Origin: Escherichia phage p000y
Direction: 5' to 3' (one strand)
DNA: 64,000 nucleotides
Sequence record: MK047718.1
Below, piece by piece: positions 28,143-61,421 of this stretch. A model generated the notes under the pieces. It saw only the letters and a list, made by a program, of their open reading frames with translations, made no database searches and was not told the DNA's origin. Each line of letters starts with the position of its first letter. Within the stretch, counting starts at the first letter, position 1. The position numbers were made by a program, and so were the translations under genes.

Positions 28143-30854
28143 ATGAAAGAATTTTACTTAACGGTTGAACAGATTGGTGATTCAATTTTTGAACGTTACA
28201 TCGATTCTAATGGCCGTGAACGTACTCGTGAAGTAGAATATAAACCATCACTGTTTGCTCATTGTCCAGAAAGTCAGGCTACGAAATATTTCGATATCTA
28301 CGGTAAGCCGTGTACTCGTAAGTTGTTCGCTAATATGCGTGATGCCTCCCAATGGATTAAACGCATGGAAGATATCGGACTTGAAGCACTTGGCATGGAC
28401 GATTTCAAATTGGCGTATTTGTCTGACACTTATAACTATGAAATCAAATACGACCATACAAAAATTCGTGTGGCTAACTTCGACATCGAAGTAACATCTC
28501 CGGACGGGTTCCCTGAGCCGGCACAAGCAAAGCATCCGATTGATGCTATCACCCATTATGACTCAATTGACGACAGGTTCTATGTATTTGATCTATTGAA
28601 TTCTCCATACGGCAATGTGGAAGAATGGTCTATCGAAATTGCGGCTAAGCTTCAAGAACAAGGTGGTGATGAAGTTCCATCCGAAATTATCGACAAAATT
28701 GTTTATATGCCGTTTGATAATGAAAAAGAATTATTGATGGAATATCTCAACTTCTGGCAACAGAAAACTCCTGTCATTTTGACTGGATGGAACGTTGAGT
28801 CATTTGATATTCCATATGTGTATAACCGAATCAAGAATATTTTTGGCGAATCTACTGCGAAACGTTTATCACCACATCGTAAAACTCGTGTTAAAGTTAT
28901 CGAAAACATGTATGGTTCTCGTGAAATCATTACATTGTTCGGTATCTCTGTTCTTGATTACATTGACCTTTACAAAAAGTTCTCTTTCACGAACCAACCG
29001 TCGTATTCTCTGGATTACATTTCAGAATTTGAATTGAACGTTGGTAAACTGAAATATGACGGCCCTATTTCTAAACTTCGTGAAAGCAATCACCAACGAT
29101 ATATTTCTTATAACATTATCGATGTGTATCGTGTATTGCAAATTGATGCTAAGCGTCAGTTCATCAACTTGAGTTTGGACATGGGTTATTATGCTAAAAT
29201 TCAGATTCAATCTGTGTTCAGTCCAATTAAAACATGGGATGCTATTATTTTTAATAGCCTTAAAGAGCAGAACAAGGTGATTCCACAAGGTCGTTCTCAC
29301 CCGGTTCAACCTTATCCTGGCGCTTTTGTTAAGGAACCTATTCCAAATCGATACAAATATGTAATGAGTTTCGACCTTACATCTCTGTATCCAAGTATTA
29401 TTCGCCAAGTGAATATTAGCCCTGAAACAATAGCAGGAACGTTTAAAGTAGCTCCACTGCATGATTATATTAACGCAATCGCTGAACGTCCTTCAGATGT
29501 GTACAGTTGCTCTCCTAACGGCATGATGTATTATAAAGACCGTGATGGTGTAGTTCCAACTGAAATCACTAAGGTCTTTAATCAACGTAAAGAACATAAA
29601 GGTTACATGCTTGCAGCTCAACGTAATGGTGAAATAATTAAAGAGGCATTGCATAATCCTAATCTTTCTGTTGACGAACCATTAGATGTTGATTATCGTT
29701 TTGACTTCACTGACGAGATTAAAGAAAAGATTAAAAAGTTGTCTGCTAAATCTCTTAATGAAATGTTGTTTAGAGCTCAACGTACTGAAGTTGCAGGTAT
29801 GACTGCACAAATTAACCGTAAATTGCTTATCAACTCACTTTATGGTGCACTTGGCAACGTTTGGTTCCGTTATTATGATTTGCGTAATGCTACTGCAATC
29901 ACAACATTTGGTCAAATGGCTTTACAGTGGATTGAACGTAAAGTTAATGAATATCTGAATGAAGTTTGTGGTACAGAAGGTGAAGCTTTCGTTCTTTATG
30001 GTGATACAGACTCTATTTACGTATCTGCTGATAAAATTATCGATAAGGTTGGTGAATCTAAATTCCGTGATACCAACCATTGGGTAGACTTCTTAGATAA
30101 GTTTGCTCGTGAACGTATGGAACCTGCTATTGATAGAGGTTTCCGTGAAATGTGTGAATACATGAACAATAAACAACACTTAATGTTCATGGACCGAGAA
30201 GCTATCGCTGGGCCTCCGCTTGGTTCTAAAGGTATTGGCGGATTTTGGACTGGTAAGAAACGTTATGCATTAAACGTGTGGGATATGGAAGGTACTCGTT
30301 ACGCTGAGCCTAAACTCAAAATCATGGGTCTCGAAACACAGAAATCTTCGACTCCTAAAGCAGTACAGAAAGCTCTTAAAGAATGTATTCGTCGTATGCT
30401 TCAAGAAGGTGAAGAATCATTACAAGAATATTTTAAAGAGTTTGAAAAAGAATTCCGTCAATTGAATTATATTAGCATCGCGTCGGTATCTTCTGCGAAT
30501 AACATTGCTAAATATGATGTAGGTGGATTCCCGGGTCCTAAATGCCCGTTCCATATTCGTGGAATTCTGACATATAACCGAGCTATCAAAGGTAATATTG
30601 ATGCACCACAAGTTGTAGAAGGTGAAAAAGTATATGTTCTGCCTTTACGTGAAGGAAACCCATTCGGTGATAAATGTATCGCATGGCCTTCTGGTACTGA
30701 AATCACAGATTTAATTAAAGACGATGTACTTCATTGGATGGACTACACTGTTCTCCTTGAGAAGACATTTATTAAACCACTTGAAGGATTCACATCAGCA
30801 GCTAAACTCGATTACGAGAAGAAAGCATCTCTGTTCGATATGTTTGATTTTTGA
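28143..30854 (+). CDS. 43: DNA polymerase gp43 (family B)
   Basis: 903 aa; exo motif FDIEV, pol motifs DLTSLYPSII, KLLINSLYG, YGDTDS; length and N-terminus read as RB69-type gp43. Confidence 0.95.
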   Translation: MKEFYLTVEQIGDSIFERYIDSNGRERTREVEYKPSLFAHCPESQATKYFDIYGKPCTRKLFANMRDASQWIKRMEDIGLEALGMDDFKLAYLSDTYNYEIKYDHTKIRVANFDIEVTSPDGFPEPAQAKHPIDAITHYDSIDDRFYVFDLLNSPYGNVEEWSIEIAAKLQEQGGDEVPSEIIDKIVYMPFDNEKELLMEYLNFWQQKTPVILTGWNVESFDIPYVYNRIKNIFGESTAKRLSPHRKTRVKVIENMYGSREIITLFGISVLDYIDLYKKFSFTNQPSYSLDYISEFELNVGKLKYDGPISKLRESNHQRYISYNIIDVYRVLQIDAKRQFINLSLDMGYYAKIQIQSVFSPIKTWDAIIFNSLKEQNKVIPQGRSHPVQPYPGAFVKEPIPNRYKYVMSFDLTSLYPSIIRQVNISPETIAGTFKVAPLHDYINAIAERPSDVYSCSPNGMMYYKDRDGVVPTEITKVFNQRKEHKGYMLAAQRNGEIIKEALHNPNLSVDEPLDVDYRFDFTDEIKEKIKKLSAKSLNEMLFRAQRTEVAGMTAQINRKLLINSLYGALGNVWFRYYDLRNATAITTFGQMALQWIERKVNEYLNEVCGTEGEAFVLYGDTDSIYVSADKIIDKVGESKFRDTNHWVDFLDKFARERMEPAIDRGFREMCEYMNNKQHLMFMDREAIAGPPLGSKGIGGFWTGKKRYALNVWDMEGTRYAEPKLKIMGLETQKSSTPKAVQKALKECIRRMLQEGEESLQEYFKEFEKEFRQLNYISIASVSSANNIAKYDVGGFPGPKCPFHIRGILTYNRAIKGNIDAPQVVEGEKVYVLPLREGNPFGDKCIAWPSGTEITDLIKDDVLHWMDYTVLLEKTFIKPLEGFTSAAKLDYEKKASLFDMFDF

Positions 30855-30894: not shown

Positions 30895-31530
30895 ATGAAA
30901 ACTACACCAATCACTATCGCTATTGACGCAATCGTAAAACAAGCTTCATCTCTTGCCACTATGGCTAAAGTAATTAGTCAAAACCCTGCTCGTTATAATG
31001 CTATTCTAGAAACTCTTCGACGCCCGGGACTTAGTAATTATGAAAGCCGAGTAATTATTACAGGTGTTGGTAAGAACGCTAATATCGCAACTAAAGCTTC
31101 CGAGACTTTTGCTTCACTCGGTATCCCAAGTATGTACTTGAACACTGGGCATTATTCTCATGGTGACGCAGGATTTATTGCACCTAATGATGTATTAGTT
31201 CACATCAGTCGTTCTGGTAAGACTGAAGAAATGATAGGTGTTGCTAAACATCTTCGTATGATTCGTCCTCAGGTTAAACAGATTCTGTTACATTGTAACC
31301 CTGACATTCCACAAGAATACGAAGCTCTTTTTGATTATACGTTCTGTACCGGTATCGCGGTAGAAGTTGACGAGAACTCTTTAGCTCCGACAATGTCTAC
31401 TACATTGTTGTTAGCGCTTATCGATACGTTCGCTATCAACCTTTCGTCTGAACGTGGATTTACCTCTAATGACTTCCTTAAGTTCCATCCAGGCGGTGCA
31501 CTAGGTGCCATGTTACGAGGCGAACAATGA
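30895..31530 (+). CDS. SIS-domain sugar-phosphate isomerase (KdsD/arabinose-5-phosphate isomerase-like)
   Basis: 211 aa; ITGVGKNANIATKASETFASLGIPS...HGDAG...HISRSGKTEE follows the KdsD/GutQ SIS pattern (GxGKS, ATFASxG, HGDxG, SxSGxTxE). Confidence 0.6.
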   Translation: MKTTPITIAIDAIVKQASSLATMAKVISQNPARYNAILETLRRPGLSNYESRVIITGVGKNANIATKASETFASLGIPSMYLNTGHYSHGDAGFIAPNDVLVHISRSGKTEEMIGVAKHLRMIRPQVKQILLHCNPDIPQEYEALFDYTFCTGIAVEVDENSLAPTMSTTLLLALIDTFAINLSSERGFTSNDFLKFHPGGALGAMLRGEQ

Positions 31531-31670
31531 AAGCAATAACAATAGGACTTTTACTATTGATGCTTGTCATGACTATCTACTGGAGCTTAACGGCTCCAGT
31601 AATGATTCCAACACTTGTAATTGGATGGATTATGATTGGACTACAAGCAAAGTATGAATGCTTTAACTAG
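31527..31670 (+). CDS. Small hydrophobic membrane peptide, 47 aa
   Basis: ATGA-coupled to the SIS gene; MKAITIGLLLLMLVMTIYWSLTAPVMIPTLVIGWIMIGL...; below the track cutoff. Confidence 0.4.
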   Translation: MKAITIGLLLLMLVMTIYWSLTAPVMIPTLVIGWIMIGLQAKYECFN

Positions 31671-31711
31671 AATAGTGTACAATACTCCTACTTACCAATG
31701 AGGACTTCAAC

Positions 31712-33397
31712 ATGAAAAAAGCTGTTATTCTTGGTGCTGGATTGGCAACTCGTTTATATCCAATAACGCATCATATTCCTAAGGTGCTTGTTAACTATAA
31801 ACAAGACACTATTCTGAGCAATTTGTATACAATTTATTCTGACCTTGGCGCAGATGAAATTATTGTAGTAGTTCATTCAAAATTTGCTGAAACTGTTCGA
31901 GCTTATTGTGAGCAAGAAGGGTTCAATGTGACTATTCGTACAGTTGATGAAGCATACGGTTCTGCTTATGCTCTTGCTAAATTACACAAAGATTTAGACG
32001 GCCATAACGTAATTGTTAACTGGTGTGATATTATTCCTGACTTTGGTTCATGGTCTTGGAATGTTAACGCAATCTATGTTAAGGGTGATGAATGTCGATA
32101 TAATTTCGATGGTGAAAATATCACTAACGTAGGTTCAACAGGTGGTAATGTTGTAGGAATTTATCAGTTCAAAGACTGGGAATTCTACATGGGTTCTACT
32201 GATGAGGAAATTCACGAATACTGCAAAGGTCGTGATTTCGTAGAATTCCTTTACGGCAGTGCATTCAATAAATCAGAGCTTATGAATCTAATTGATTTAG
32301 GTGATATGCCTAAACTTGAAAAGGCTCATGAAGTTCGTGAACTGAATCGTAGTTTTAATGCAGTTGAAATTGGCGAAGAAACTGTAACTAAATTCGCGTT
32401 AACCGAACAAGGTCGAGCTCTTCAAAAAGATGAGATTTCATGGTATTTGAAAGTGAAATCAGATTCAGTTCCTCAGTTAGTTTCGGTAAATGAAAATAAT
32501 TTTGAAATGGAACGTATTAAAGGTAAGCCGGCATTTGAATATATTAAATCCAAATCAAGTCTTGCTCGTCCACAAATTGTTGATGCAATTTTAGATGCAC
32601 TGAAATTCAGCACGGACACTTATTTTGTAAGTCCTGAAACTGTTCGCCGTGATTTCACTAAAGAGTTCTATACGAAAGTTATTGATCGTTGTGAAAGCAT
32701 TCAGCCATTGATTGATTCATTTGGTAAAATCACACACGTGAACTACACTAAAATTGGACGTCTGAAGCCAATGTTGAAACAAGCTTTAGAACATCTTATT
32801 CGTTATCATAACCGTTCTCAGGGACAGTACTCTGTTATTCATGGTGACCCGAACTTCAGTAATACTATGATTACCGATAACGGCGAAGTCAAGTTTATCG
32901 ACCCTCGTGGATATTTTGGTGAAACCAAGATTTACGGGCCAAAATTATATGATGAAGCTAAAGTGCTTTATGCTGTTTCAGGTTATGATGAATTCAATGC
33001 TAATCCGACCTGGGGACAGTTTACTATTGATGAAACAACTTGTAATGTGACTATTAACATCAATCCATTAGTTTACAAATATGGAAAGATGAGTTCGTTT
33101 AACGAGTATCATCATTTGGCTGTAGCAATTATCTGGATTGCATTAGGTGGTTATTTCAAGAATAATCCACTTAAAGCGGTTGCCGCATATTATAAAGGTA
33201 TGGAACTTCTGACTAAGCAATTACGTAACATGGGCCGTGTACTTCAAGACGGCTCTATTAGTTATGACGTAGCAGAACCTGTAACGGCTACTCTGATTAC
33301 AAAAAATCCTGGTAAATGGGTACTAACTGATAAAGAAACTGGTGTTTCCTATCGTCCAATCGGCGGCGATATCACTCATCAATGGGAACGAATCTAA
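31712..33397 (+). CDS. Bifunctional sugar-1-phosphate nucleotidyltransferase / APH-fold anomeric sugar kinase (MurU-AmgK-like fusion)
   Basis: 561 aa; N-terminal NTase motif AVILGAGLATRL; C-terminal kinase motifs HGDPNFSNTMI and FIDPRGYFG; RBS TGAGGA. Confidence 0.6.
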   Translation: MKKAVILGAGLATRLYPITHHIPKVLVNYKQDTILSNLYTIYSDLGADEIIVVVHSKFAETVRAYCEQEGFNVTIRTVDEAYGSAYALAKLHKDLDGHNVIVNWCDIIPDFGSWSWNVNAIYVKGDECRYNFDGENITNVGSTGGNVVGIYQFKDWEFYMGSTDEEIHEYCKGRDFVEFLYGSAFNKSELMNLIDLGDMPKLEKAHEVRELNRSFNAVEIGEETVTKFALTEQGRALQKDEISWYLKVKSDSVPQLVSVNENNFEMERIKGKPAFEYIKSKSSLARPQIVDAILDALKFSTDTYFVSPETVRRDFTKEFYTKVIDRCESIQPLIDSFGKITHVNYTKIGRLKPMLKQALEHLIRYHNRSQGQYSVIHGDPNFSNTMITDNGEVKFIDPRGYFGETKIYGPKLYDEAKVLYAVSGYDEFNANPTWGQFTIDETTCNVTININPLVYKYGKMSSFNEYHHLAVAIIWIALGGYFKNNPLKAVAAYYKGMELLTKQLRNMGRVLQDGSISYDVAEPVTATLITKNPGKWVLTDKETGVSYRPIGGDITHQWERI

Positions 33398-33783
33398 TGC
33401 ACCGTGTAGAAAACATGCTTAATCTTTGTTTTGATGTCGATGATTGTATAACAGAGTGGAATAACAATCGTGATTACGTGAACTTCAAACCAGACGTCGA
33501 AATGGTGTCTGCCATTAATGCCCTGTATGATGCAGGGCATACCATAACGCTTTACACTGCCCGTGGTATGAAGTCGGTAGGTCCTGGTCGTATAGCAATT
33601 GACATTCTCCCAAGTCTGATTCAGAACTTGGAAAACATTGGTTTGAAGTACCATAATTTGCTAACACATAAACCAGTATATGATTGGATTATCGACGACA
33701 AAGCTATGCGTCCTGACGAATTCAAAGCTCTTATGAATAAAGGCGAATTCGAAACATTTAAATCATATAAACCAAATCTATAA
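33397..33783 (+). CDS. HAD-superfamily phosphatase (KdsC-like), about 128 aa
   Basis: HAD motif I FDVDDCIT, motif II LYTARG, motif IV WIIDDKA; TAATG overlap with the upstream gene. Confidence 0.55.
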   Translation: MHRVENMLNLCFDVDDCITEWNNNRDYVNFKPDVEMVSAINALYDAGHTITLYTARGMKSVGPGRIAIDILPSLIQNLENIGLKYHNLLTHKPVYDWIIDDKAMRPDEFKALMNKGEFETFKSYKPNL

Positions 33784-33829
33784 TAATTTAAGTAAGACCT
33801 GCAAAAACCATCGCATCAATTAACGCGAG

Positions 33830-34999
33830 ATGCAAAAAATGAATACTTTTAAAATCGGAACGAATTTTGATTTAGCTCTTCTTGATAAAATCGTAGAGCT
33901 CAATAAAACCTATCCTAATAGCTTGATAAACGAAGTATATGGCTCTACAAGAGAAATGGCTTTTGTAGCAGCCAGACCTGATTTTAGGCTTCCTGACGTT
34001 GACAAAAAGATGTTAGAAGACTACGTTAAACGTTGTAACGAATTAGGTATTTGCTTTAACTATACACTCAACACGATAAATCCTGGTTCAAAAAGAGAAC
34101 TAGTTGAGTGGAAGAAGAAAGCTATTCAGGATTATGTTCAGTATCTTTGGTCAATAGGCGTATGGCGTATTACTATCGCTAACCCTGTTGTTATGGAAAT
34201 TGTTCGTGAAGTCAATAAAGATATTGAGATTGAAGTTTCAACAATTCTACATGTCGATGCGGTAACTCAAATCAAATACTTACATGACCAATATAACATC
34301 AAAAAGGTCTGTTGCGGAATTCATAAGAACCGTTCAGTTTCTTTCCTGAAGCGTGCAGCAGAGTTTTGCAATAAGAACAATATAATATTTGAAGTTCTTG
34401 TAAATGAGTTCTGTTCTAATGCTGGTAAAGGGTATACAACACATTGTAGTTATCGTGACTCTTGCTATATTTTCCATAGTACTGATGTTACCGCTGATGA
34501 TGCTAAATCCTTAAATGGATATCCTATGCAGCACTGTATTAAAGCTCGTGATACAGACCCATTTAACTGGTTGAGAACTCGTTTTGTTCGTCCTCAAGAT
34601 TTGAAACTTTATAATGATATTGGTATCACTCAATTCAAAGTTTCAGGACGTACAGGTAGCACAGACTACATTTTGAAAGTTCTTGAAGCATACGCTTCTG
34701 AAAAGTTTGAAGGTAATTTGTTAGAACTGTGGAAGCCTTTAGAGACTATTTTCACTCTTGAAAATGAGACTGAGTTTTCACATACAGTAAATATTGAAAC
34801 CTCTTTGTTAGATGGCTTTTTAGAAAAAAGGTGGTTCAGACATCCAGATTTTGATTGTGCTAATGAAATCTGTGGGTCAACGTGTACATATTGTGAAAGG
34901 TATTATAAACGTCAATTATCTAAAAACGGGTTAGCAGAAAACTCCATATCTATTATTGATATAACTAACTCTGATGACGCTTTGAGGTACCCGGAATGA
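33830..34999 (+). CDS. Cys-rich enzyme of unknown function, 389 aa (possibly peptidase-U32-like/Fe-S)
   Basis: Clustered cysteines (VCCGIH, FCSNAGKGYTTHCSYRDSCY, C-terminal CANEICGSTCTYC); family assignment is tentative. Confidence 0.35.
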   Translation: MQKMNTFKIGTNFDLALLDKIVELNKTYPNSLINEVYGSTREMAFVAARPDFRLPDVDKKMLEDYVKRCNELGICFNYTLNTINPGSKRELVEWKKKAIQDYVQYLWSIGVWRITIANPVVMEIVREVNKDIEIEVSTILHVDAVTQIKYLHDQYNIKKVCCGIHKNRSVSFLKRAAEFCNKNNIIFEVLVNEFCSNAGKGYTTHCSYRDSCYIFHSTDVTADDAKSLNGYPMQHCIKARDTDPFNWLRTRFVRPQDLKLYNDIGITQFKVSGRTGSTDYILKVLEAYASEKFEGNLLELWKPLETIFTLENETEFSHTVNIETSLLDGFLEKRWFRHPDFDCANEICGSTCTYCERYYKRQLSKNGLAENSISIIDITNSDDALRYPE

Positions 35000-35235
35000 T
35001 TTCTAGAAAAAGTTTTAATTATAAACTTAACGAAGAGATTTTGACTATGAAACTGAACACTAACGAACAAATTCTTAAAAAGGCCCTTATGGGCCTGTTT
35101 GAAACCAAAGCGGCTAAAGTGATTAAAGAACCTGTTCAATTGGAATACTACACTGATGCATTCCTTCATAGTGTTCTTGGAAGTATAGATTCTGAAGCTT
35201 TACGTTATATCAACATTGTCAAGAAATTCAAATAA
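34996..35235 (+). CDS. Hypothetical protein, 79 aa
   Basis: ATGA-coupled ORF. Confidence 0.35.
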   Translation: MISRKSFNYKLNEEILTMKLNTNEQILKKALMGLFETKAAKVIKEPVQLEYYTDAFLHSVLGSIDSEALRYINIVKKFK

Positions 35236-35258
35236 GCTTTACGAATTGAGTATATAAT
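35236..35258 (+). promoter_or_regulatory. Middle promoter (GCTTTA plus TATAAT) upstream of the hydroxymethylase gene
   Basis: GCTTTA 35236-35241, 11 nt, TATAAT 35253-35258; RBS GAGG before ATG 35278. Confidence 0.5.
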
Positions 35259-35277
35259 AAATTGTATTGAGGTAAAC

Positions 35278-35994
35278 ATGGGAAAACATAACACAATGAA
35301 ATATATCAAAGCCGCAGATTTTCAAACCGCATTTAAAGCAGTCAATCGTGAAATTTTAGAAAACCCGGAATTCGTAACTGATTCTCGTATTGGACGTTGT
35401 AATGAAATTGGGTCTATGACAGTAGTTGTTGACACTCCATCATCATTCAAAATGACCGACCCACGTATTAACCGCATCTCTTATGAATATGCCGAAGACT
35501 TCTGGAAGTTTATGATTTCTGGTGGTACCAACGCAGAAGAAGCGTTTAAGGCATATCCTAATGTCGCTAAATTTATTTCTAAACCAAAATCAGATGTTTT
35601 GCCGGCGAACTTCAACACTTTCTATGGTCCTCGCATTGCGGCCCAATTACCAACTCTTCTAAAAGAACTTAAAGAAAAACCTAACTCTCGAAGAGTTGTG
35701 TTCCAAATTCTAGAAAGTTCTGATCAGGCTTTGCTTGATTCGGACGAAACACTTGAATATCCATGTACTGACTCAGTAACTTATTATATTCGTGATGGTA
35801 AGCTTTATACCCACTGTCATATGCGTTCTCAGAACTGTGCTGTTGTTATGCAGTTGGATTTTTATCTCCAAGGAAAATTACTTCATTATATCGCTAACGA
35901 ATGCGGTGTAGAAGTTGGTGATTATACTCATACCATGGTAAGTGCCCATGTGTTTGAACGTGATTTTGATTATGTTAAAGGATTCCTTGACTAA
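35278..35994 (+). CDS. 42: Thymidylate-synthase-fold pyrimidine hydroxymethylase (gp42 dCMP hydroxymethylase-like, divergent)
   Basis: 238 aa; nucleophile-Cys context YPCTDSVTYYIRD and HMRSQN typical of the TS / dCMP-hydroxymethylase fold; same position as T4 gene 42. Confidence 0.6.
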   Translation: MGKHNTMKYIKAADFQTAFKAVNREILENPEFVTDSRIGRCNEIGSMTVVVDTPSSFKMTDPRINRISYEYAEDFWKFMISGGTNAEEAFKAYPNVAKFISKPKSDVLPANFNTFYGPRIAAQLPTLLKELKEKPNSRRVVFQILESSDQALLDSDETLEYPCTDSVTYYIRDGKLYTHCHMRSQNCAVVMQLDFYLQGKLLHYIANECGVEVGDYTHTMVSAHVFERDFDYVKGFLD

Positions 35995-36893
35995 TGGCTA
36001 TTTTCCGCGTACCAATCTTGAGTATGCGGTCTTATGAAACTGGACAGTATGCTATCCTTAAGGATGGCAACTTCCAACTTCATTTGCACCGTGCTAATCC
36101 GGGTGATGTGATTACATATCCACGTAATGCATCTGATATTAAAGAATGCGAACGTCTTTTCCCAGAATTTAAGTTTGTTCCATTATGGTATAAAGATAAC
36201 GCGTATAACACTCGTAAATATTTCTGGACTGAAAATGAATTTGTGGTTGATTCATTAATTGATTATTATGATTGTGATTTTCTAATCACAGATATCACTG
36301 GTTATGGCGGCGCTTTTGATGTGGAATTCAATTTCAATATCACTGCAGACCCTAATAAACCACGTTTTTATATTGATGAATTCTTAAAAACCGACATGTT
36401 GTCTGTTAATCGTTCACTTCAAACTACTGTGTTGAATGAACGTCAAAAAGAAGTGCTGGTTAACGCAGGTGCAGATGGTAATAAGATTATCGTAACGCAG
36501 AAAGTTATACGTCCTTCCATCATGCAGCGTCTTGTAGGTGATTTGGCTCCTATTCATCTAGATGGTATTTTTCATCCATTTCGAATTAGTGACCCATGTT
36601 ATCGTTTTGAACAAGTGGTTGAATGTGCAATTCAATTAGGTCAACCGCTTTATATAACCGATCCAAATAATAGCTTCGACAGAAATAAGTATCCTGAAGA
36701 AGCGCTGATTCGAATTTTTAAACCAACTAAAACTGAGTACTATCAAATTCTTAAAGGACGTCCGAAAATTCAATATTTCGAAAATCCTGAAGAAGTATTC
36801 CATCCAGGTCTTGGTGAGTTCATCTACTTTAATGCTTTAATTTCTTCGCCGTATAATATACCTAAATACGAAGATGTCGTAATCGAGGAATAA
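35994..36893 (+). CDS. Hypothetical protein, 299 aa, at the position of T4 beta-glucosyltransferase
   Basis: ATGA-coupled to the hydroxymethylase gene; no recognisable motif. Confidence 0.4.
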   Translation: MAIFRVPILSMRSYETGQYAILKDGNFQLHLHRANPGDVITYPRNASDIKECERLFPEFKFVPLWYKDNAYNTRKYFWTENEFVVDSLIDYYDCDFLITDITGYGGAFDVEFNFNITADPNKPRFYIDEFLKTDMLSVNRSLQTTVLNERQKEVLVNAGADGNKIIVTQKVIRPSIMQRLVGDLAPIHLDGIFHPFRISDPCYRFEQVVECAIQLGQPLYITDPNNSFDRNKYPEEALIRIFKPTKTEYYQILKGRPKIQYFENPEEVFHPGLGEFIYFNALISSPYNIPKYEDVVIEE

Positions 36894-36894
36894 A

Positions 36895-37443
36895 ATGGCT
36901 AAAATTATTTTAGTAGATGGCCCGGATAATGCTGGTAAAACAACTTTCATTAATGACATAATGGAAATTAGTGAAAGATATGTAAAGATTGATTTCCCTA
37001 AACGAACAGTTGATGGACGTTTCGATGTTAAGTCTCGAAATGAAGTTGGCTGTTTCGAAACGATGTTGAATTATTTAGACCCTACTAAGATTTATCTGTT
37101 AGACCGTGGATATATTAGTAACTGGGTTTATGGACGTATTCGACAAGATGCGGACTCGATTCTTGACGTTTATGAACAGGACTATGTTCGTCTTTGCCAA
37201 AACCATGATGTGTTCACAATTATTTTAACACGTAACGAAATGACTGAAAGTTTTGAAGACGACCTTATTACTTTGTCTTCATTCGGTTTTAATACAGTCA
37301 TTTCACATTTTGAAGAGTTTGCAATTCATAACAAAATCCAAACGTATCAATTACTTAATCATGATGGTGCTAACAAAGTTATAGGATTTAATGCAAGCGA
37401 ACGTAATTATTTGATTACAGAAATTATCAAATGGGCTCGTTAA
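36895..37443 (+). CDS. P-loop nucleoside/nucleotide kinase-like protein, 182 aa
   Basis: Walker A ILVDGPDNAGKTT, then LLDRGYISNWVYG resembling the dNK/TMPK fold. Confidence 0.5.
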   Translation: MAKIILVDGPDNAGKTTFINDIMEISERYVKIDFPKRTVDGRFDVKSRNEVGCFETMLNYLDPTKIYLLDRGYISNWVYGRIRQDADSILDVYEQDYVRLCQNHDVFTIILTRNEMTESFEDDLITLSSFGFNTVISHFEEFAIHNKIQTYQLLNHDGANKVIGFNASERNYLITEIIKWAR

Positions 37444-37541: not shown

Positions 37542-38714
37542 ATGTCTGATTTAAAATCTCGTCTGATTAAAGCTTCTACTTCTAAAATGACTGCAGACTT
37601 GACTAAGTCTAAGCTGTTTAATAATCGTGATGAAGTCCCTACTCGTATTCCGATGTTGAATATTGCATTAGGTGGTGCACTGAATGCCGGGTTGCAATCA
37701 GGCTTAACTATTTTTGCTGCTCCTTCTAAACACTTTAAAACGTTGTTTGGGCTGACCATGGTTGCAGCATATATGAAGAAATATAAAGATGCAATCTGTT
37801 TGTTTTATGACTCAGAATTCGGTGCTTCAGAATCTTATTTTCGTTCAATGGGTGTTGATTTAGACCGTGTAGTTCATACTCCGATTCAATCTGTCGAACA
37901 ACTTAAAGTTGATATGACTAATCAGCTTGACGCGATTGAACGCGGTGATAAAGTTATTATCTTTATCGATTCAATCGGTAATACTGCATCTAAGAAAGAA
38001 ACCGAAGATGCGTTGAACGAGAAAGTTGTAGGTGATATGTCTCGTGCTAAGGCACTTAAATCTCTGTTTCGCATTGTGACCCCGTATCTGACTATTAAAG
38101 ATATTCCGTGTGTTGCAATTAACCATACCGCAATGGAAATCGGCGGACTATATCCTAAAGAGATTATGGGTGGTGGTACAGGTATTCTTTACTCTGCTAA
38201 CACTGTATTCTTTATCTCTAAACGTCAGGTTAAAGAAGGTACAGAATTGACCGGTTATGACTTCACGTTGAAAGCAGAAAAATCTCGTACAGTTAAAGAG
38301 AAATCTACTTTCCCAATCACAGTTAATTTTGATGGTGGTATCGACCCATTCAGTGGCTTGTTAGAAATGGCAACTGAAATTGGTTTTGTAGTTAAGCCTA
38401 AAGCCGGGTGGTATGCTCGTGAATTCCTTGACGAAGAAACAGGTGAAATGATTCGTGAAGAGAAATCATGGCGTGCTAAAGCTACTGATTGTGTAGAATT
38501 CTGGGGACCGTTGTTTAAACACAAACCTTTCCGTGACGCAATTGAAACTAAATATAAACTAGGTGCTATCTCTTCTATTAAAGAAGTTGATGACGCTGTT
38601 AATGACCTTATTAATTGCAAAGCAACAACTAAAGTTCCGGTTAAAACTTCTGATGCTCCGTCTGCAGCAGATATAGAAAACGACCTTGATGAAATGGAAG
38701 ATTTCGATGAATAA
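37542..38714 (+). CDS. uvsX: Recombinase UvsX (RecA-like)
   Basis: 390 aa; ...MLNIALGGALNAGLQSGLTIFAAPSKHFKT... RecA-fold Walker A; reads as T4 UvsX. Confidence 0.92.
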   Translation: MSDLKSRLIKASTSKMTADLTKSKLFNNRDEVPTRIPMLNIALGGALNAGLQSGLTIFAAPSKHFKTLFGLTMVAAYMKKYKDAICLFYDSEFGASESYFRSMGVDLDRVVHTPIQSVEQLKVDMTNQLDAIERGDKVIIFIDSIGNTASKKETEDALNEKVVGDMSRAKALKSLFRIVTPYLTIKDIPCVAINHTAMEIGGLYPKEIMGGGTGILYSANTVFFISKRQVKEGTELTGYDFTLKAEKSRTVKEKSTFPITVNFDGGIDPFSGLLEMATEIGFVVKPKAGWYAREFLDEETGEMIREEKSWRAKATDCVEFWGPLFKHKPFRDAIETKYKLGAISSIKEVDDAVNDLINCKATTKVPVKTSDAPSAADIENDLDEMEDFDE

Positions 38715-55941: not shown

Positions 55942-57759
55942 ATGATTAAAAATGAAATTAAGGTATTGTCAGATGTAGAACATATTAAGAAACGTAGTGG
56001 TATGTATATTGGTTCTTCTGCTAAAGAAGCACATGAGCGTTTTTTGTTTGGTAAATATCAACAAGTTGAATATGTTCCAGGTCTGGTTAAATTAATCGAT
56101 GAGATTATTGACAACTCGGTTGATGAAGCTATTCGTACATCATTTAAGTTTGCAAATAAAATTGATGTGCAAATTAAAAATAATCAAGTTTCGGTGGAAG
56201 ATAACGGACGTGGTATTCCTCAAGGTTTAGTTACCGACCAAACAGGTGAACAAATTCCTGGTCCTGTAGCAGCCTGGACTATTCCAAAGGCCGGTGGTAA
56301 CTTTGGTGATGACTCTGAACGCAAGACTGGTGGTATGAACGGCGTCGGGAGTAGTTTAACTAATATCTTCTCTACGTTGTTTACAGGCATCACGTCAGAT
56401 GGCGAAAATGAAATCACTGTTAACTGTTCAAACGGAATGGAAAACAAATCATGGTCTTCTAAGAAATCTAAAGGTAAAGGCACTAAAGTAATCTTCACTC
56501 CTGATTTCTCTTCATTTGAAGAGCATAATTTATCTCAAATTTATTTAGATATTACTTTAGACAGACTTCAAACATTGGCAGTCGTTTATCCTGATATCAA
56601 GTTCACATTTAATGGTAAAAAGGTTGATGGTAATTTTAAACGATTTGCTAAACAATTTGGTGAAGATAACATCATTCAAGAAAATGATAAAGTCTCTATA
56701 GCATTCACAACATCACCAGATGGCTTCCGTCATTTAACTTATGTGAATAACATCCATACTAAAAATGGTGGTCATCATGTTGAATGTGTAATGGATGATA
56801 TCTGCGAACATCTTTTGCCTGGTATTAAAAAGAAATATAAGGGTATTGAAGTCACTAAAGCTCGTGTTAAAGAATGCCTCACAATGTTGATGTTTATTAG
56901 AGACATGAGCAATATGCGTTTTGATTCTCAGACTAAAGAACGTTTAACGTCAACGTATGGTGATATTCGTAATCATATCCAATTAGATGCTAAGAAAATT
57001 GCTCAGGCACTTCTTAAAAACGAAGCCTTGATTATGCCTATTGTTGAAGCAGCATTAGCTCGTAAATTGGCGGCAGAAAAGGCTGCAGAAACTAAAGCAG
57101 CTAAAAAGGCAACTAAAGCTAAGGTTCATAAGCATATTAAAGCTAACCAATGTGGTAAAGACGCAGATACGACATTGTTCTTAACAGAAGGTGATTCTGC
57201 AATTGGTTATCTCATTGATGTTCGTGACCGTGAACTACACGGCGGATTCCCATTACGTGGTAAGGTGATGAATAGCTGGGGTATGTCATATGCGGATATG
57301 ATGAAGAACAAAGAGCTCTTTGATATCTGTGCTATCACAGGTCTTATTCTTGGTGAAAAGGCCGAGAATACGAACTATCGTAATATTGCAATTATGACTG
57401 ACGCAGATCACGACGGTCTTGGAAGTATCTATCCGGCTTTGCTTGCTTTCTTTAGTAATTGGCCTGAATTGTTTGAACAAGGACGTATTCGCTTTGTTAA
57501 AACACCTGTAATTATTGCACAAATTGGCAAAACTCAAAAATGGTTTTATACTGTAGCTGAGTATGAAGAAGTTAAAGATACACTGCCTAAGCATAGTATT
57601 CGATACATCAAGGGATTAGGCTCCCTTGAAAAGTCAGAGTATCGTGAAATGATTCAGAACCCTGTGTACGACGTAGTTAAACTTCCTGAAAATTGGAAAG
57701 AACTCTTTGAAATGTTGATGGGTGATGATTCAGAACTTCGTAAAGAATGGATGTCCTAA
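55942..57759 (+). CDS. 39: DNA topoisomerase II large subunit gp39 (uninterrupted 39+60-type)
   Basis: 605 aa; GHKL ATPase region plus TOPRIM motif LTEGDSAIGY; single ORF rather than the split 39/60 arrangement of T4. Confidence 0.88.
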   Translation: MIKNEIKVLSDVEHIKKRSGMYIGSSAKEAHERFLFGKYQQVEYVPGLVKLIDEIIDNSVDEAIRTSFKFANKIDVQIKNNQVSVEDNGRGIPQGLVTDQTGEQIPGPVAAWTIPKAGGNFGDDSERKTGGMNGVGSSLTNIFSTLFTGITSDGENEITVNCSNGMENKSWSSKKSKGKGTKVIFTPDFSSFEEHNLSQIYLDITLDRLQTLAVVYPDIKFTFNGKKVDGNFKRFAKQFGEDNIIQENDKVSIAFTTSPDGFRHLTYVNNIHTKNGGHHVECVMDDICEHLLPGIKKKYKGIEVTKARVKECLTMLMFIRDMSNMRFDSQTKERLTSTYGDIRNHIQLDAKKIAQALLKNEALIMPIVEAALARKLAAEKAAETKAAKKATKAKVHKHIKANQCGKDADTTLFLTEGDSAIGYLIDVRDRELHGGFPLRGKVMNSWGMSYADMMKNKELFDICAITGLILGEKAENTNYRNIAIMTDADHDGLGSIYPALLAFFSNWPELFEQGRIRFVKTPVIIAQIGKTQKWFYTVAEYEEVKDTLPKHSIRYIKGLGSLEKSEYREMIQNPVYDVVKLPENWKELFEMLMGDDSELRKEWMS

Positions 57760-57782
57760 GCTCCTTCGGGAGCTTCATTTTA
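57759..57782 (+). terminator. Rho-independent terminator after gene 39
   Basis: AGCTCC-TTCG-GGAGCT followed by a T-rich tract. Confidence 0.6.
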
Positions 57783-57801
57783 ATTTTAATAAGGCTTAAT
57801 T

Positions 57802-58902
57802 ATGAAAGTTATGTTTATCCCATCTCGCGCAGTCCCATTTAACCCAGAACGTGTACAAGGTGGTCTTGAAGCAGTACATTTAAATGTGTTGAAATATTTA
57901 GTTTCTATCTGTGCTGATATTGATTATATCGGTTTTGATAATGACACATTTGGTGATTGGAAGGTTAATCATCATCCTGTTGGTCATCTGACAAAATTCA
58001 GTCTAGGTATGAGTTATACTATGGCTCGTAAGATTGTTGAACTAGCCGGCATCCATGAATACGATTTCGTTGTTACTATGGAACCGACTAAACTAACCGT
58101 TCAGGCAATTAAAGACGCAGGCCTCTCTAAAGTTCATAAGAATTTTATGGCAACACCATTTGAACCGGTATCTCGTGGCATTGTTCAAATTTGGGACCAG
58201 ACTATTCAAATTCATAAGAATGGTGGTAAGAGTTATGCTCCTACTAAAGCCTTCCGTGAATTTGAACGCAAATATTGTTATATGACTTCAGGTCTGACTG
58301 ACAAAATTGATTATGATTATTGGCGAGCAAATCCGTTGTTTGAAGCCGAAGATTATCCGGTTATTTGTTTGAATGAGAAACCTGAAGTTCTTCCGGCGAC
58401 GGATCTGATTATTAGTGCACAACGTTATGACACTAAAATGCGTCGTACTGATGTTGCTCTTGAAGCGATTAAAGCACTAGGCGAAAATGGTGCAGGATAC
58501 TGTCCTAGTAAATGGGCACCACCAGCTAAATATCCTGTTATTATTGATGCTCCACACAGTGAAATCATGGAACGCCTTAAAACAGCTAAAGCACTTATTA
58601 ATACGTGTCCTGACACAGGTACGGTAGAGAATAGTTCTATTGAAGCCATCTCTAAAGGTGTCCCTGTAATCCAGTTAGTTTTTAAGGATTATCCTCATGC
58701 GACATTTGAATACGACCCAGATACTGTGCGTGTAGAAATTGATTCCTCTACTCCTAAGAAAGAAGTAGTTGCGCTTTACACAAAAGCTGTATTAGAATTC
58801 ACTGACACATACGAAGCTCGAGTTAAACGTGCTGAAGCAGTATGGAAGAAGTATAACCGAGATGCAGTTGTTGCGATGTGGGATAAAATCTTCACAGCGT
58901 AA
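57802..58902 (+). CDS. GT-B fold glycosyltransferase (GT4-like), 366 aa; candidate DNA sugar transferase
   Basis: N-terminal MKVMFIP...GGLEAVHLNVLKYL and C-terminal TGTVENSSIEAISKGVPVI resemble GT4 donor-binding motifs; RBS AAGG. Confidence 0.55.
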   Translation: MKVMFIPSRAVPFNPERVQGGLEAVHLNVLKYLVSICADIDYIGFDNDTFGDWKVNHHPVGHLTKFSLGMSYTMARKIVELAGIHEYDFVVTMEPTKLTVQAIKDAGLSKVHKNFMATPFEPVSRGIVQIWDQTIQIHKNGGKSYAPTKAFREFERKYCYMTSGLTDKIDYDYWRANPLFEAEDYPVICLNEKPEVLPATDLIISAQRYDTKMRRTDVALEAIKALGENGAGYCPSKWAPPAKYPVIIDAPHSEIMERLKTAKALINTCPDTGTVENSSIEAISKGVPVIQLVFKDYPHATFEYDPDTVRVEIDSSTPKKEVVALYTKAVLEFTDTYEARVKRAEAVWKKYNRDAVVAMWDKIFTA

Positions 58903-58917
58903 ATCCTGAATAGCCTG

Positions 58918-58969
58918 AGGCACTATTACACATAAGATGATAGATTATATGGTCTTTAGTAATAGTGCC
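58918..58969 (+). promoter_or_regulatory. Large stem-loop with promoter-like -10 in the loop
   Basis: 11-bp inverted repeat GGCACTATTAC (58919-58929) / GTAATAGTGCC (58959-58969); loop contains GATGATAGATTAT. Confidence 0.4.
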
Positions 58970-58994
58970 CTAGGAATCTACTGAAGAGAATATT

Positions 58995-59195
58995 ATGAGA
59001 ACATATAACGTGGACTTGGAACTTTTTGATAAAGCAGTGCTCCGGGAATTCCGGCTTATCCAAAGATTTTTTGATATTGAGTCAGCAGAGTCCTTTAAAG
59101 AACGCTTTAAAGAAATTCGATATAAAATACAAACTGATACAGCTACTAAAGAAGAACTTCTCGAAGTGGCAGAAATTTTTAAACGTAACTTGTGA
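58995..59195 (+). CDS. Hypothetical protein, 66 aa (rIIA.1 position)
   Basis: RBS GAAGAG upstream. Confidence 0.4.
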   Translation: MRTYNVDLELFDKAVLREFRLIQRFFDIESAESFKERFKEIRYKIQTDTATKEELLEVAEIFKRNL

Positions 59196-59207
59196 TGAGA
59201 GAAAAAT

Positions 59208-61421
59208 ATGATTATTGAAACGGCTAAAGAAACAATTATTGGTTCAGGCGGTAAGAGCACAGCATTTACTATTCAAGGCAATAGCAAAGTTTATAAGATT
59301 TTGTCTAATGACCTTTATACAAACAAAGAATTGGCTTGTGTACGTGAATTAATCACAAACTGTATCGATGGACAAATTCTTAATGGTTGCACCGACAAGT
59401 TTATTGTTCAGGCTCCAGGTCGTTTAGACCCACGTTTTGTAGTTCGAGACTTTGGTCCTGGTATGAGTGATTTCACCATTCGAGGTAATGATGAAGAGCC
59501 AGGAATCTATAACTCATATTTTGCTTCAACTAAAACATCGAGTAACGATTTCATTGGTGGTTTCGGTCTCGGTTCTAAAGCTCCATTAGCATATACTGAT
59601 ACGTTTAACCTTACGTCTTATCACAACGGTGAAGTTCGTGGTTACGTAATTTACCAAGATGACACGGGTCCACAAATTAAGCCAACCTTTGTAGATAAGA
59701 TGGGCCCTGATGACAGTACGGGTGTAGAAGTAGTTGTACCGGTTAACCCAGAAGATTTTGAAAAGTTCGCATCCGAAATTGCTTATGTTATGCGTCCTCT
59801 CGGCGATATTGCAGAAGTTCGTGGTGTTAAAGATATTAAATACTTTCCTGAATTTGACGATGTATATTTGGCCAAGGAAGCTCCATGGGGTGAACGTGGT
59901 AATATCATGGCTGTTTATGGTGGTATTGTATATCCAATCGGAAGTGTTATTAAAGAACAAACATGGATGATGACACGATGCACTACAGCTTATATTAAAT
60001 TCCCTATGGGTGAACTAGATGTAGCCCCGTCTCGTGAAGCATTGTCATTTGATAAACGTACAGTAGCAAATATCCATAAACGCGTTGCAGAAATCGATGC
60101 AAAATTATTTGCTGAAGATTCTAAGAAATGGATTGATTGTGAATATCCACGTCATGTATTCCGTGAAATCGATTCTCTTGGTTACTCTGCTCGTAAATAT
60201 ATGGAAAAGGCCGGGTCTAATATTGAATCACTGAAATACTCTAAAGAACAACTAACTTATTCTGAGTTGTACAAACGTTTTAAAATGGGGCCTGAGTGGT
60301 GTAATCTTGGTGTCGTATACGATATCGTTGAATCCCCTCGTCTTCGTCGTATTCGTGAAAGCGGTAGCTCAACGGCAACCATTTCAATTAACAGTCTGAT
60401 TGGCATTAACATTAAAAACGTTGAAATTGTTATTGACGACGTTAAGGGACGCGTTCCATTAATGCGAGCTCTTAATTCAATTGAAATGTCTAAAGACGAG
60501 GTTAAATTAACCGGTAAAGTTCCACGCGGTTTTGGTAAAAGCGTACTATTCGTTGACCCTACAGACGAAGATGCAATGAAACTTCTGGAACGCCTTAAAG
60601 TTATCTTTGATGGCGACAACATTAACATGTACAAGACTTCAGAGCTTTTACAAATCGTTAAGCCATGGATTGAAGTCAAGACTCGTTCTAATGGGCCTCG
60701 TCCTAAATCCCCAAGTGCTCATCGGTTCTTTAAGAATGAAAACGATGTTTGGGTATCAGAAGACCTCTTTATTCCGGCAAGTGAAGCAGATGAAATCCAA
60801 GGTTATGCTATAGTTCGTAATCGTTCTAATGCTGAATGTCTTGACTCAGATAAAGGTTGGTTGAACTATGACTCCAATTTCTTGACCCGTATTGCTGATT
60901 TGTCAGGTATTAAAGAGTTCACTGTAGTTCGTCCACAGATTGCTAAGAAAGTTCGTAAACTTGGTGAAGTAGAATGCTTGTTCGAAAAATCAATTAATGA
61001 CTATATTACGCTAATCGATAAAGTAGATTATGATGAGTATGTATCACCAAGTCGTAGAGCACAGCCCTATCTAAACCATATTACTCGTAATGAAGAGCTT
61101 AACTTCCTTAGTAAGTATTTTAGCTCTAAGAACAAAGAAATCAGTAAAGACTTTGCAAAACTCTCCACAGTAAATAATCGCTGGGGATGGAATCGATTCG
61201 CAGGTGCTACTAATACAGACCTGAATAAGAAGTTAGAATTGTGTGCTAAAATTTTCGATAAGCTTAAAGATAATGCTTACGATAATGATGATAAAATGGT
61301 TATTGAATTCGAAACCAATTATCATATTGTGTCAGACTACATGGGACGACGTGGTACTCTTTCCAAAGAACAGGTCGCTCAAATCGTTAAATTCATGAAG
61401 GCCGTGGAAGCGGCCAAATAA
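59208..61421 (+). CDS. rIIA: Rapid-lysis protein rIIA
   Basis: 737 aa; N-terminal GHKL-type motifs ELITNCIDG and DFGPGMS. Confidence 0.85.
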   Translation: MIIETAKETIIGSGGKSTAFTIQGNSKVYKILSNDLYTNKELACVRELITNCIDGQILNGCTDKFIVQAPGRLDPRFVVRDFGPGMSDFTIRGNDEEPGIYNSYFASTKTSSNDFIGGFGLGSKAPLAYTDTFNLTSYHNGEVRGYVIYQDDTGPQIKPTFVDKMGPDDSTGVEVVVPVNPEDFEKFASEIAYVMRPLGDIAEVRGVKDIKYFPEFDDVYLAKEAPWGERGNIMAVYGGIVYPIGSVIKEQTWMMTRCTTAYIKFPMGELDVAPSREALSFDKRTVANIHKRVAEIDAKLFAEDSKKWIDCEYPRHVFREIDSLGYSARKYMEKAGSNIESLKYSKEQLTYSELYKRFKMGPEWCNLGVVYDIVESPRLRRIRESGSSTATISINSLIGINIKNVEIVIDDVKGRVPLMRALNSIEMSKDEVKLTGKVPRGFGKSVLFVDPTDEDAMKLLERLKVIFDGDNINMYKTSELLQIVKPWIEVKTRSNGPRPKSPSAHRFFKNENDVWVSEDLFIPASEADEIQGYAIVRNRSNAECLDSDKGWLNYDSNFLTRIADLSGIKEFTVVRPQIAKKVRKLGEVECLFEKSINDYITLIDKVDYDEYVSPSRRAQPYLNHITRNEELNFLSKYFSSKNKEISKDFAKLSTVNNRWGWNRFAGATNTDLNKKLELCAKIFDKLKDNAYDNDDKMVIEFETNYHIVSDYMGRRGTLSKEQVAQIVKFMKAVEAAK

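Follow-up and report, generated by a model that had tools for sequence, protein, structure and literature searches.

A glycosyltransferase gene beside rIIA in Escherichia phage p000y probably encodes an accessory, second-sugar DNA arabinosyltransferase

Which step in the glycosylation of phage DNA is carried out by the glycosyltransferase (GT) that is encoded between gene 39 and rIIA in Escherichia phage p000y? The gene (57802..58902, plus strand) was analysed within a 64,000-nucleotide stretch of sequence record MK047718.1, hereafter the window. It is a real open reading frame (ORF) of 366 amino acids (aa) with an ATG start, and the N-terminus of its product reads MKVMFIPSRAVPFNPERVQGGLEA. 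The probable answer, in our judgement, is that the 366-aa enzyme is an accessory DNA arabinosyltransferase of the genus Mosigvirus, which uses uridine diphosphate (UDP)-arabinofuranose to add a second sugar. Second-sugar transfer is the best supported step because the phyletic pattern, the number of gene copies in comparison to the number of sugars, the biochemistry of Acinetobacter phage DLP3 and the published view all point to it. The ORF, the fold class, the near-identity to a UDP-bound structure, the second GT-B enzyme, the synthase of the 5-hydroxycytosine (5hoC) type and the phyletic and copy-number pattern were computed in this analysis, while the DNA chemistry, the in vitro activity of the DLP3 enzymes and the phenotype of the Bas46 aat deletion are taken from papers.

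The first-pass annotation had described the ORF as a GT-B enzyme with GT4-like features, situated between gene 39 and rIIA, and both the position and the fold were borne out. A search of the PDB matched the protein over its full length to the chains of 9IQZ ('phage HY126 glycosyltransferase') and 9IR0 ('phage HY126 glycosyltransferase with UDP'), released 2025-07-16, with 359 of the 366 residues identical (98%). The UDP-binding HY126 enzyme is for practical purposes the same protein, from which ours differs by seven substitutions (E16D, C38G, N56T, Y160H, G164A, A231V and S315F in window numbering). As a 98% identical crystal structure is present in the PDB, the GT-B call is correct and was already published. 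The protein consists of a pair of Rossmann-like domains whose interdomain cleft holds the active site, and the glycine-rich loop that follows the first beta-strand of the N-terminal domain is present (G20, G21 and L22 are kept in at least 90% of the family). The C-terminal domain has the nucleotide-sugar-binding features of the fold, i.e. the conserved Glu of the motif E-A-x-x-x-G-x-P-V and a basic residue that serves the phosphates; here R208, R214 and E281-A-I-S-K-G-V-P-V are invariant in the family. In the alignment of Thomas et al. (2018, PMC6024577), Glu-281 falls opposite Glu-311 of T4 alpha-gt, a residue that binds the ribose. The T4 alpha-gt and beta-gt chains in the PDB were matched at E<=10 neither by the 366-aa protein nor by the family profile.

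The relationship to GT4 was investigated with an AlphaFold2 (AF2) model built from a 6-sequence alignment. After the HY126 entries, the best Foldseek matches of this model were the GT4 GT-B enzymes WlaC (6eji), PimA, WaaG and BshA, with E values of about 1e-7. The family itself is narrow: 5 clusters were found in a word-indexed search of 5.8 billion proteins and 12 representatives in 1.84 billion proteins. Its profile reaches two Pfam-GT4 proteins (E 1.5e-4 and 4.3e-4), which are the most remote of the 12 representatives. PHROG 8302, a family of 'unknown function', is matched end to end (residues 1-366, E 2.5e-222). The curated GT4 profiles, Pfam Glyco_transf_4 and Glycos_transf_1, do not recognise the protein; in other words, it is GT4-like by fold and not a profile-defined member of GT4.

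The distribution of the 366-aa protein was compared with that of the second GT-B enzyme of the window, a 299-aa GT encoded within a sugar cassette (Table 1), by tblastn searches of a phage database with window positions 57802-58899 and with the 299-aa GT. The 366-aa protein was found in 211 phage records, namely Mosigvirus-type phages of Escherichia and Shigella, Acinetobacter phages and one Tegunavirus. The 299-aa GT was found in 348 records, from phages of Escherichia, Shigella, Acinetobacter, Klebsiella, Serratia, Enterobacter, Proteus, Yersinia, Edwardsiella, Pectobacterium, Providencia and Shewanella, including Dhakavirus JS98 and Shewanella phage Thanatos-1, and among the matches listed it adjoins the synthase. 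By organism, every phage group with a 366-aa homolog also has the 299-aa GT. Moreover, the 299-aa GT is present in every arabinosylating phage group examined, whereas the 366-aa protein is not present in all of them.

The sugar count follows the copy number of the 366-aa family across four phage groups. Thanatos-1 is mono-arabinosylated and has a single GT (Lee et al. 2026, PMC13326640); its cassette lacks a 366-aa homolog, and the gene after the kinase encodes a U32 protein. The Prodigiosinella/Serratia phage LC53 carries one arabinose, the cassette of Serratia phage CHI14 shows one GT only, and no Serratia phage record in the database has the 366-aa protein by tblastn (LC53 itself was not located there). 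RB69, NicPhage and Bas46/47, with up to two sugars according to the literature, have one copy of the gene. Acinetobacter phages have two copies in all records listed, and three sugars are described in the literature for DLP3. Two further observations were made on these records. Tegunavirus is a genus of Yersinia phages; the one record of this name has a 366-aa homolog, and six 'Yersinia' records with the 299-aa GT are not among the 366-aa matches. Thanatos TH1_065, which follows the kinase where DLP3 has gp77, was considered as a hidden homolog and rejected, as it is a Peptidase_U32 protein with an hhalign probability of 0.1% against the family.

The same distribution bears on the idea that the enzyme has nothing to do with the cassette and glycosylates a target other than DNA, such as a phage protein or the glycans of the host envelope. 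Its structural neighbours are GTs of lipids, lipopolysaccharide and small molecules (PimA, WaaG, WlaC, BshA), and in Mosigvirus the gene lies about 20 kb from the cassette, both of which would suit such a role. However, judged by organism in the phage records, all groups with homologs also have the 299-aa GT of the cassette, and in the Acinetobacter phages the homologs are found inside the cassette, directly after the kinase, and act on DNA in vitro. We therefore regard a target other than DNA as extremely improbable.

The closest biochemical evidence comes from DLP3, whose gp77 and gp76 are 43% and 41% identical to the 366-aa protein, end to end. In vitro, these two proteins act together on RB69 DNA, which is arabinosylated already, and extend it by a third arabinofuranose (Araf) taken from UDP-Araf; bare 5hoC DNA was not modified by any one transferase alone (Lee et al. 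2026, PMC13326640). The RB69 ortholog of the 366-aa protein, gp3, is listed in the literature as 'beta-arabinosyltransferase 2'. The published view has changed in this respect: for RB69 ORF003c, i.e. the same gene, the 2018 proposal was that of a sole transferase with hydroxymethylcytosine (hmC) as its acceptor (Thomas et al. 2018, PMC6024577), and later work has replaced this by a second transferase on arabinosyl-5hoC. A Bas46 phage with aat deleted is viable and becomes susceptible to a defence system, a result that is cited in a passage on the role of Tet-associated glycosyltransferases (TAGTs); 'Aat' is most likely the product of the orthologous gene bas46_0103. From homology and the phyletic pattern we infer that the 366-aa enzyme acts specifically in the second transfer, and on DNA.

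A variant of this assignment keeps the enzyme as a DNA arabinosyltransferase but does not tie it strictly to the second step: it may work in a complex with the 299-aa GT, take part redundantly in both transfers in Mosigvirus, or use a nucleotide precursor, and not DNA, as its substrate. The fact that gp76 and gp77 of DLP3 are active only together fits such a view, as does the absence of transferase activity in vitro for a homolog of the 299-aa GT. Against it, the copy number tracks the sugar number in the four phage groups, and phages with a single GT form the mono-arabinosyl base in the absence of a 366-aa protein. We consider this variant unlikely.

The acceptor was investigated through the gene-42 homolog of the cassette. 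The first-pass annotation had named hmC as the acceptor. This did not hold: the acceptor base is not hmC, because the gene-42 homolog has the signature of a 5-hydroxy-deoxycytidine monophosphate (5-hydroxy-dCMP) synthase and the DNA of related phages has no methylene bridge, so the gp42-type dCMP hydroxymethylase that makes hmC is not what this position encodes. The 238-aa synthase shares 97-98% identity with its HY126 counterpart (PDB 9IQC/9IR2/9IQU). Aligned to canonical thymidylate synthase, it has Asn in place of D169 (RSQN) and Asp in place of N177 (...LD), in E. coli numbering. According to Lee et al. (2026, PMC13326640), D169N is the signature that predicts a 5-hydroxy-dCMP synthase. 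Tandem mass spectrometry and nuclear magnetic resonance by the same authors show that RB69 DNA contains alpha-D-Araf-O5-cytosine and beta-D-Araf-(1->3)-alpha-D-Araf-O5-cytosine, neither of which has a methylene group. Mosigvirus NicPhage has arabinosyl-5-hydroxycytosine as in RB69, and the earlier assignment of hmC to RB69 is regarded as erroneous (Durham Collection paper); Bas46 and Bas47 are described in the literature as doubly arabinosylated hydroxy-cytosine phages. We note that RSQN (D169N) is the signature of flavin-dependent 5-hydroxy-dCMP synthases, and that many relatives in GenBank still label the homolog of this gene 'dCMP hydroxymethylase' or 'thymidylate synthase'.

The 366-aa enzyme had also been called the best candidate for attaching the sugar to the base, on the ground that the canonical alpha-gt and beta-gt slots were empty. 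As for the alpha-gt slot, it is true that no ORF between gene 55 and gene 47 exceeds 107 aa. The beta-gt slot, in contrast, holds the 299-aa GT-B enzyme, which adjoins the gene-42 homolog and occurs in every arabinosylating group seen, so that the argument from empty slots falls; the phyletic pattern, the copy number in comparison to the sugars and the way in which the DLP3 paralogs behave in vitro all indicate transfer of the second sugar and not attachment to the base. What stands is the membership of the enzyme in the DNA sugar pathway fed by the cassette at 30895-34999, which is the published assignment for the RB69, Bas46 and HY126 orthologs. Taken together, the earlier observation is partly confirmed and its interpretation partly supported, and the gene is one already known, annotated and crystallised.

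These results also decide on the reading in which the 366-aa enzyme is the only or primary transferase and places the cassette sugar directly onto hmC in DNA. In its favour, the phage has a GT-B enzyme and no alpha-gt or beta-gt homologs, the same proposal was made for RB69 ORF003c (Thomas et al. 2018, PMC6024577), and it was the HY126 ortholog that was picked for crystallography. But there is no hmC pathway, the gene-42 homolog being a 5-hydroxy-dCMP synthase and the relatives' DNA lacking the methylene bridge; a second GT-B enzyme adjoins the synthase; arabinosylating groups outside Mosigvirus and Acinetobacter phages, apart from the one Tegunavirus record, lack the 366-aa protein; and the Bas46 aat deletion is viable. 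Such a primary role is very improbable.

The homologs of the 299-aa GT, the proposed base-proximal enzyme, are RB69 gp46:47, DLP3 gp79 and Thanatos TH1_063. The list of structures given for this protein, each entry with an unlabelled figure, comprises sucrose-phosphate synthase (6kih, 17.6), BshA (6n1x, 16.8), PimA (2gej, 16.0), WlaC (6eji, 15.1), the HY126 glycosyltransferase (9iqz, 14.4) and T4 alpha-glucosyltransferase (1y6f, 13.2). A remote sequence link between the 299-aa and the 366-aa families was sought and not found (BLASTP E 2.9, hhalign probability 0.5%).

A pathway can be proposed on this basis. The cassette at 30895-33783 would make the donor, UDP-D-arabinofuranose, and the ThyA-like enzyme would make 5-hydroxy-dCMP, i.e. 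would supply the acceptor hydroxyl. 5-Hydroxy-dCMP would be phosphorylated and then polymerised into DNA in place of deoxycytidine. The 299-aa GT-B enzyme would set the first alpha-D-Araf on O5 of the base, and the 366-aa enzyme, presumably cytoplasmic and binding the UDP-sugar through its C-terminal Rossmann domain, would add the second Araf, with a beta-(1->3) linkage as in RB69, onto the DNA-borne sugar. The expected outcome is a mixture of mono- and di-arabinosyl-5-hydroxycytosine as in the relatives, which may protect more broadly against host nucleases and other defences. It is possible, though we think it rather doubtful, that the enzyme is mechanistically unusual. A GT4-like scaffold, of a family that normally retains the anomeric configuration, would in that case form a beta-(1->3) linkage between two Araf units, the partner transferase would use the same donor for an alpha linkage, and one enzyme of the pair would need to invert. 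The enzyme would also recognise a sugar carried by double-stranded DNA, and not a base, and would thus extend a glycan on DNA.

Several points weigh against assigning the second transfer to the 366-aa enzyme. GT4-like enzymes usually are retaining, and a beta-linked product is therefore not self-evident, given also that no anomer is specified for the donor. At the level of the protein, a Pfam scan found no family at E<=10 and NCBIfam none, and the AF2 model has a pLDDT (predicted local distance difference test) of 59.6 overall, with a poor N-terminal domain and confidence in the C-terminal domain only. Our literature search, which did not include He et al. 2026 and Mahler et al. 2025, found no published activity for this exact enzyme. 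The requirement for gp76 and gp77 together in DLP3 may mean that one paralog per sugar is too simple a scheme. The partner enzyme raises questions as well: the individual DLP3 transferases were inactive on 5hoC DNA, the first-sugar role of the 299-aa GT is only a proposal, and the acceptor of the first sugar was left as either nucleotide or DNA (Lee et al. 2026, PMC13326640). Finally, the Thanatos homolog TH1_063 gave only UDP-xylose pyrophosphorylase activity in vitro.

In comparison to known systems, RB69 ORF003c/gp3 and Bas46 bas46_0103 are orthologs that occupy the corresponding position between gene 39 and rIIA.1, are likewise predicted to have the GT-B fold and show no substantive difference; they are the proposed makers of di-arabinosyl-5-hydroxycytosine. 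DLP3 gp77 and gp76 belong to the same family and, in vitro, lengthen arabinose chains on DNA with UDP-Araf as the donor, but they are tandem paralogs within the cassette that add the third sugar jointly, whereas Mosigvirus has a single gene, displaced by about 20 kb to a position beside rIIA. The 299-aa GT is shorter than the 366-aa enzyme, is universal in cassette-bearing phage groups and is proposed to act on the base itself. T4 alpha-gt and beta-gt likewise transfer a sugar from a UDP-sugar to modified cytosine in phage DNA after replication, and alpha-gt shares the GT-B fold. The second-sugar glucosyltransferases of T2 and T6, which form gentiobiosyl-hmC, and the TAGTs are functional analogues, as they extend a sugar that is already on the DNA. 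The system described here differs from those of T4, T2 and T6 in using arabinofuranose and not glucose, 5-hydroxycytosine and not hmC, and in its genomic position.

As this gene was put forward as the arabinosyltransferase of RB69 in 2018, the result has little weight as a discovery, and its useful outcome is a corrected annotation of the window: arabinosyl-5-hydroxycytosine in place of arabinosyl-hmC, and two transferases in place of one. If second-sugar transfer is indeed its role, the transferase beside rIIA is an accessory enzyme that decides between one and two sugars per cytosine. Published work ties the number of sugars to the host defences that a phage escapes.

The genes expected of an arabinosylation cassette, i.e. 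the 5-hydroxy-dCMP synthase, the first GT, the kinase and the UDP-Araf genes, co-occur in the window at 30895-37443. They are collected in Table 1 together with the flanking genes and the elements found around the 366-aa gene.

Table 1. Coordinates of the transferase gene, of the cassette and of neighbouring features in the window
Feature	Position	Strand	Basis
DNA polymerase	28143-30854
211-aa SIS-domain arabinose-5-phosphate isomerase, RB69 gp55 homolog	30895..31530	+	Pfam SIS, literature
561-aa bifunctional sugar kinase / UDP-arabinose pyrophosphorylase, RB69 gp52:53, HY126 AfhE-like	31712..33397	+	Pfam NTP_transferase, weak kinase matches, literature
133-aa HAD-type phosphatase, RB69 gp51, HY126 AfhF-like	33382..33783	+	NCBIfam capsule-biosynthesis phosphatase subfamily (E 1.9e-13), literature
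389-aa Peptidase_U32-family protein, RB69 gp50 homolog	33830..34999	+	Pfam PF01136
79-aa ORF	34996-35235
238-aa thymidylate-synthase-family 5-hydroxy-dCMP synthase, gene-42 position	35278..35994	+	Pfam Thymidylat_synt, PDB identity, motifs
299-aa compact GT-B glycosyltransferase, proposed first (base-proximal, alpha-Araf) arabinosyltransferase	35994..36893	+
182-aa nucleotide (deoxynucleoside monophosphate, dNMP) kinase-like protein, RB69 gp45 homolog	36895..37443	+	weak dTMP-kinase matches, literature table
UvsX	37542-38714
GC-rich UUCG-loop hairpin with T-rich tail, terminator-like	57758..57775	+	terminator-like scan and sequence; directly after gene 39 stop
Shine-Dalgarno-like AAGG	57791..57794	+	sequence reading; 7 nt upstream of ATG 57802
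366-aa GT-B (GT4-like) DNA arabinosyltransferase, proposed second-sugar (beta-Araf)	57802..58902	+	PDB identity, PHROG 8302, Bas46 annotation, literature

The U32-family gene of the cassette deserves a separate remark. Its 389-aa product is 81% and 84% identical to its counterparts in Thanatos-1 and CHI14, respectively, and the adjacent transferase is far less conserved (48% and 60%). The protein is cysteine-rich, with invariant C195/C206/C212/C236 and a C-terminal C343-x4-C348-x3-C352-x2-C355, and gives a weak match to UbiU (E 9e-4). Enzymes of the U32 family include O2-independent, prephenate-dependent hydroxylases of RNA pyrimidines and of ubiquinone, i.e. RlhA (ho5C in rRNA), TrhP (ho5U in tRNA) and UbiU/V. 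The U32 protein could thus provide an anaerobic route to 5-hydroxycytosine beside the ThyA-like synthase, which depends on O2 and flavin; our literature search found no link between U32 enzymes and phage 5-hydroxycytosine. The gene is not part of the cassette of the Acinetobacter phage DLP3. Acinetobacter is a strict aerobe.

The upstream neighbour of the 366-aa ORF is gene 39 (605-aa topoisomerase large subunit, 55942-57759), and downstream of it are a 66-aa rIIA.1-like ORF, rIIA and rIIB. Judging from the nucleotide sequence, the predicted UUCG-loop hairpin would stand between gene 39 and the transferase gene. A promoter scan around the 366-aa gene gave 11 sites as opposed to 14.1 expected in shuffled controls, i.e. 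no excess. The base composition is even over the whole window, so that nothing flags the 366-aa gene as foreign. The 92-nt spacer between the stop of the transferase gene and the rIIA.1-like ORF contains a long inverted repeat at 58917-58972 (plus strand; AGGCACTATTAC ... GTAATAGTGCCCT, with a loop of about 25-30 nt). Several related GenBank records annotate a 'terminator' within the region that matches the query 57000-59600.

With this query, megablast gave 153 phage records with a query coverage of 80% or more, most of them 95-99% identical. They belong to the RB69-like genus Mosigvirus, with Escherichia and Shigella as hosts, and the genome of the window is of the same type; its 366-aa gene is in the slot between gene 39 and rIIA.1 that is characteristic of Mosigvirus synteny. 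In Bas46 (ChristianSchoenbein, MZ501056), a phage of the BASEL collection, bas46_0103 is the same gene at the same position and is annotated as 'putative hmC-arabinosyltransferase'. The slot between rIIA.1 and gene 39 varies among the T-even relatives. In Dhakavirus JS98 (NC_010105.1, 2437-3024) it is an unannotated gap of 590 bp whose ORFs on the gene strand, of 107 and 53 aa, are unrelated to the transferase. As JS98 has the first GT and a slot that lacks the 366-aa gene, the Mosigvirus gene is a lineage-specific addition to a variable slot.

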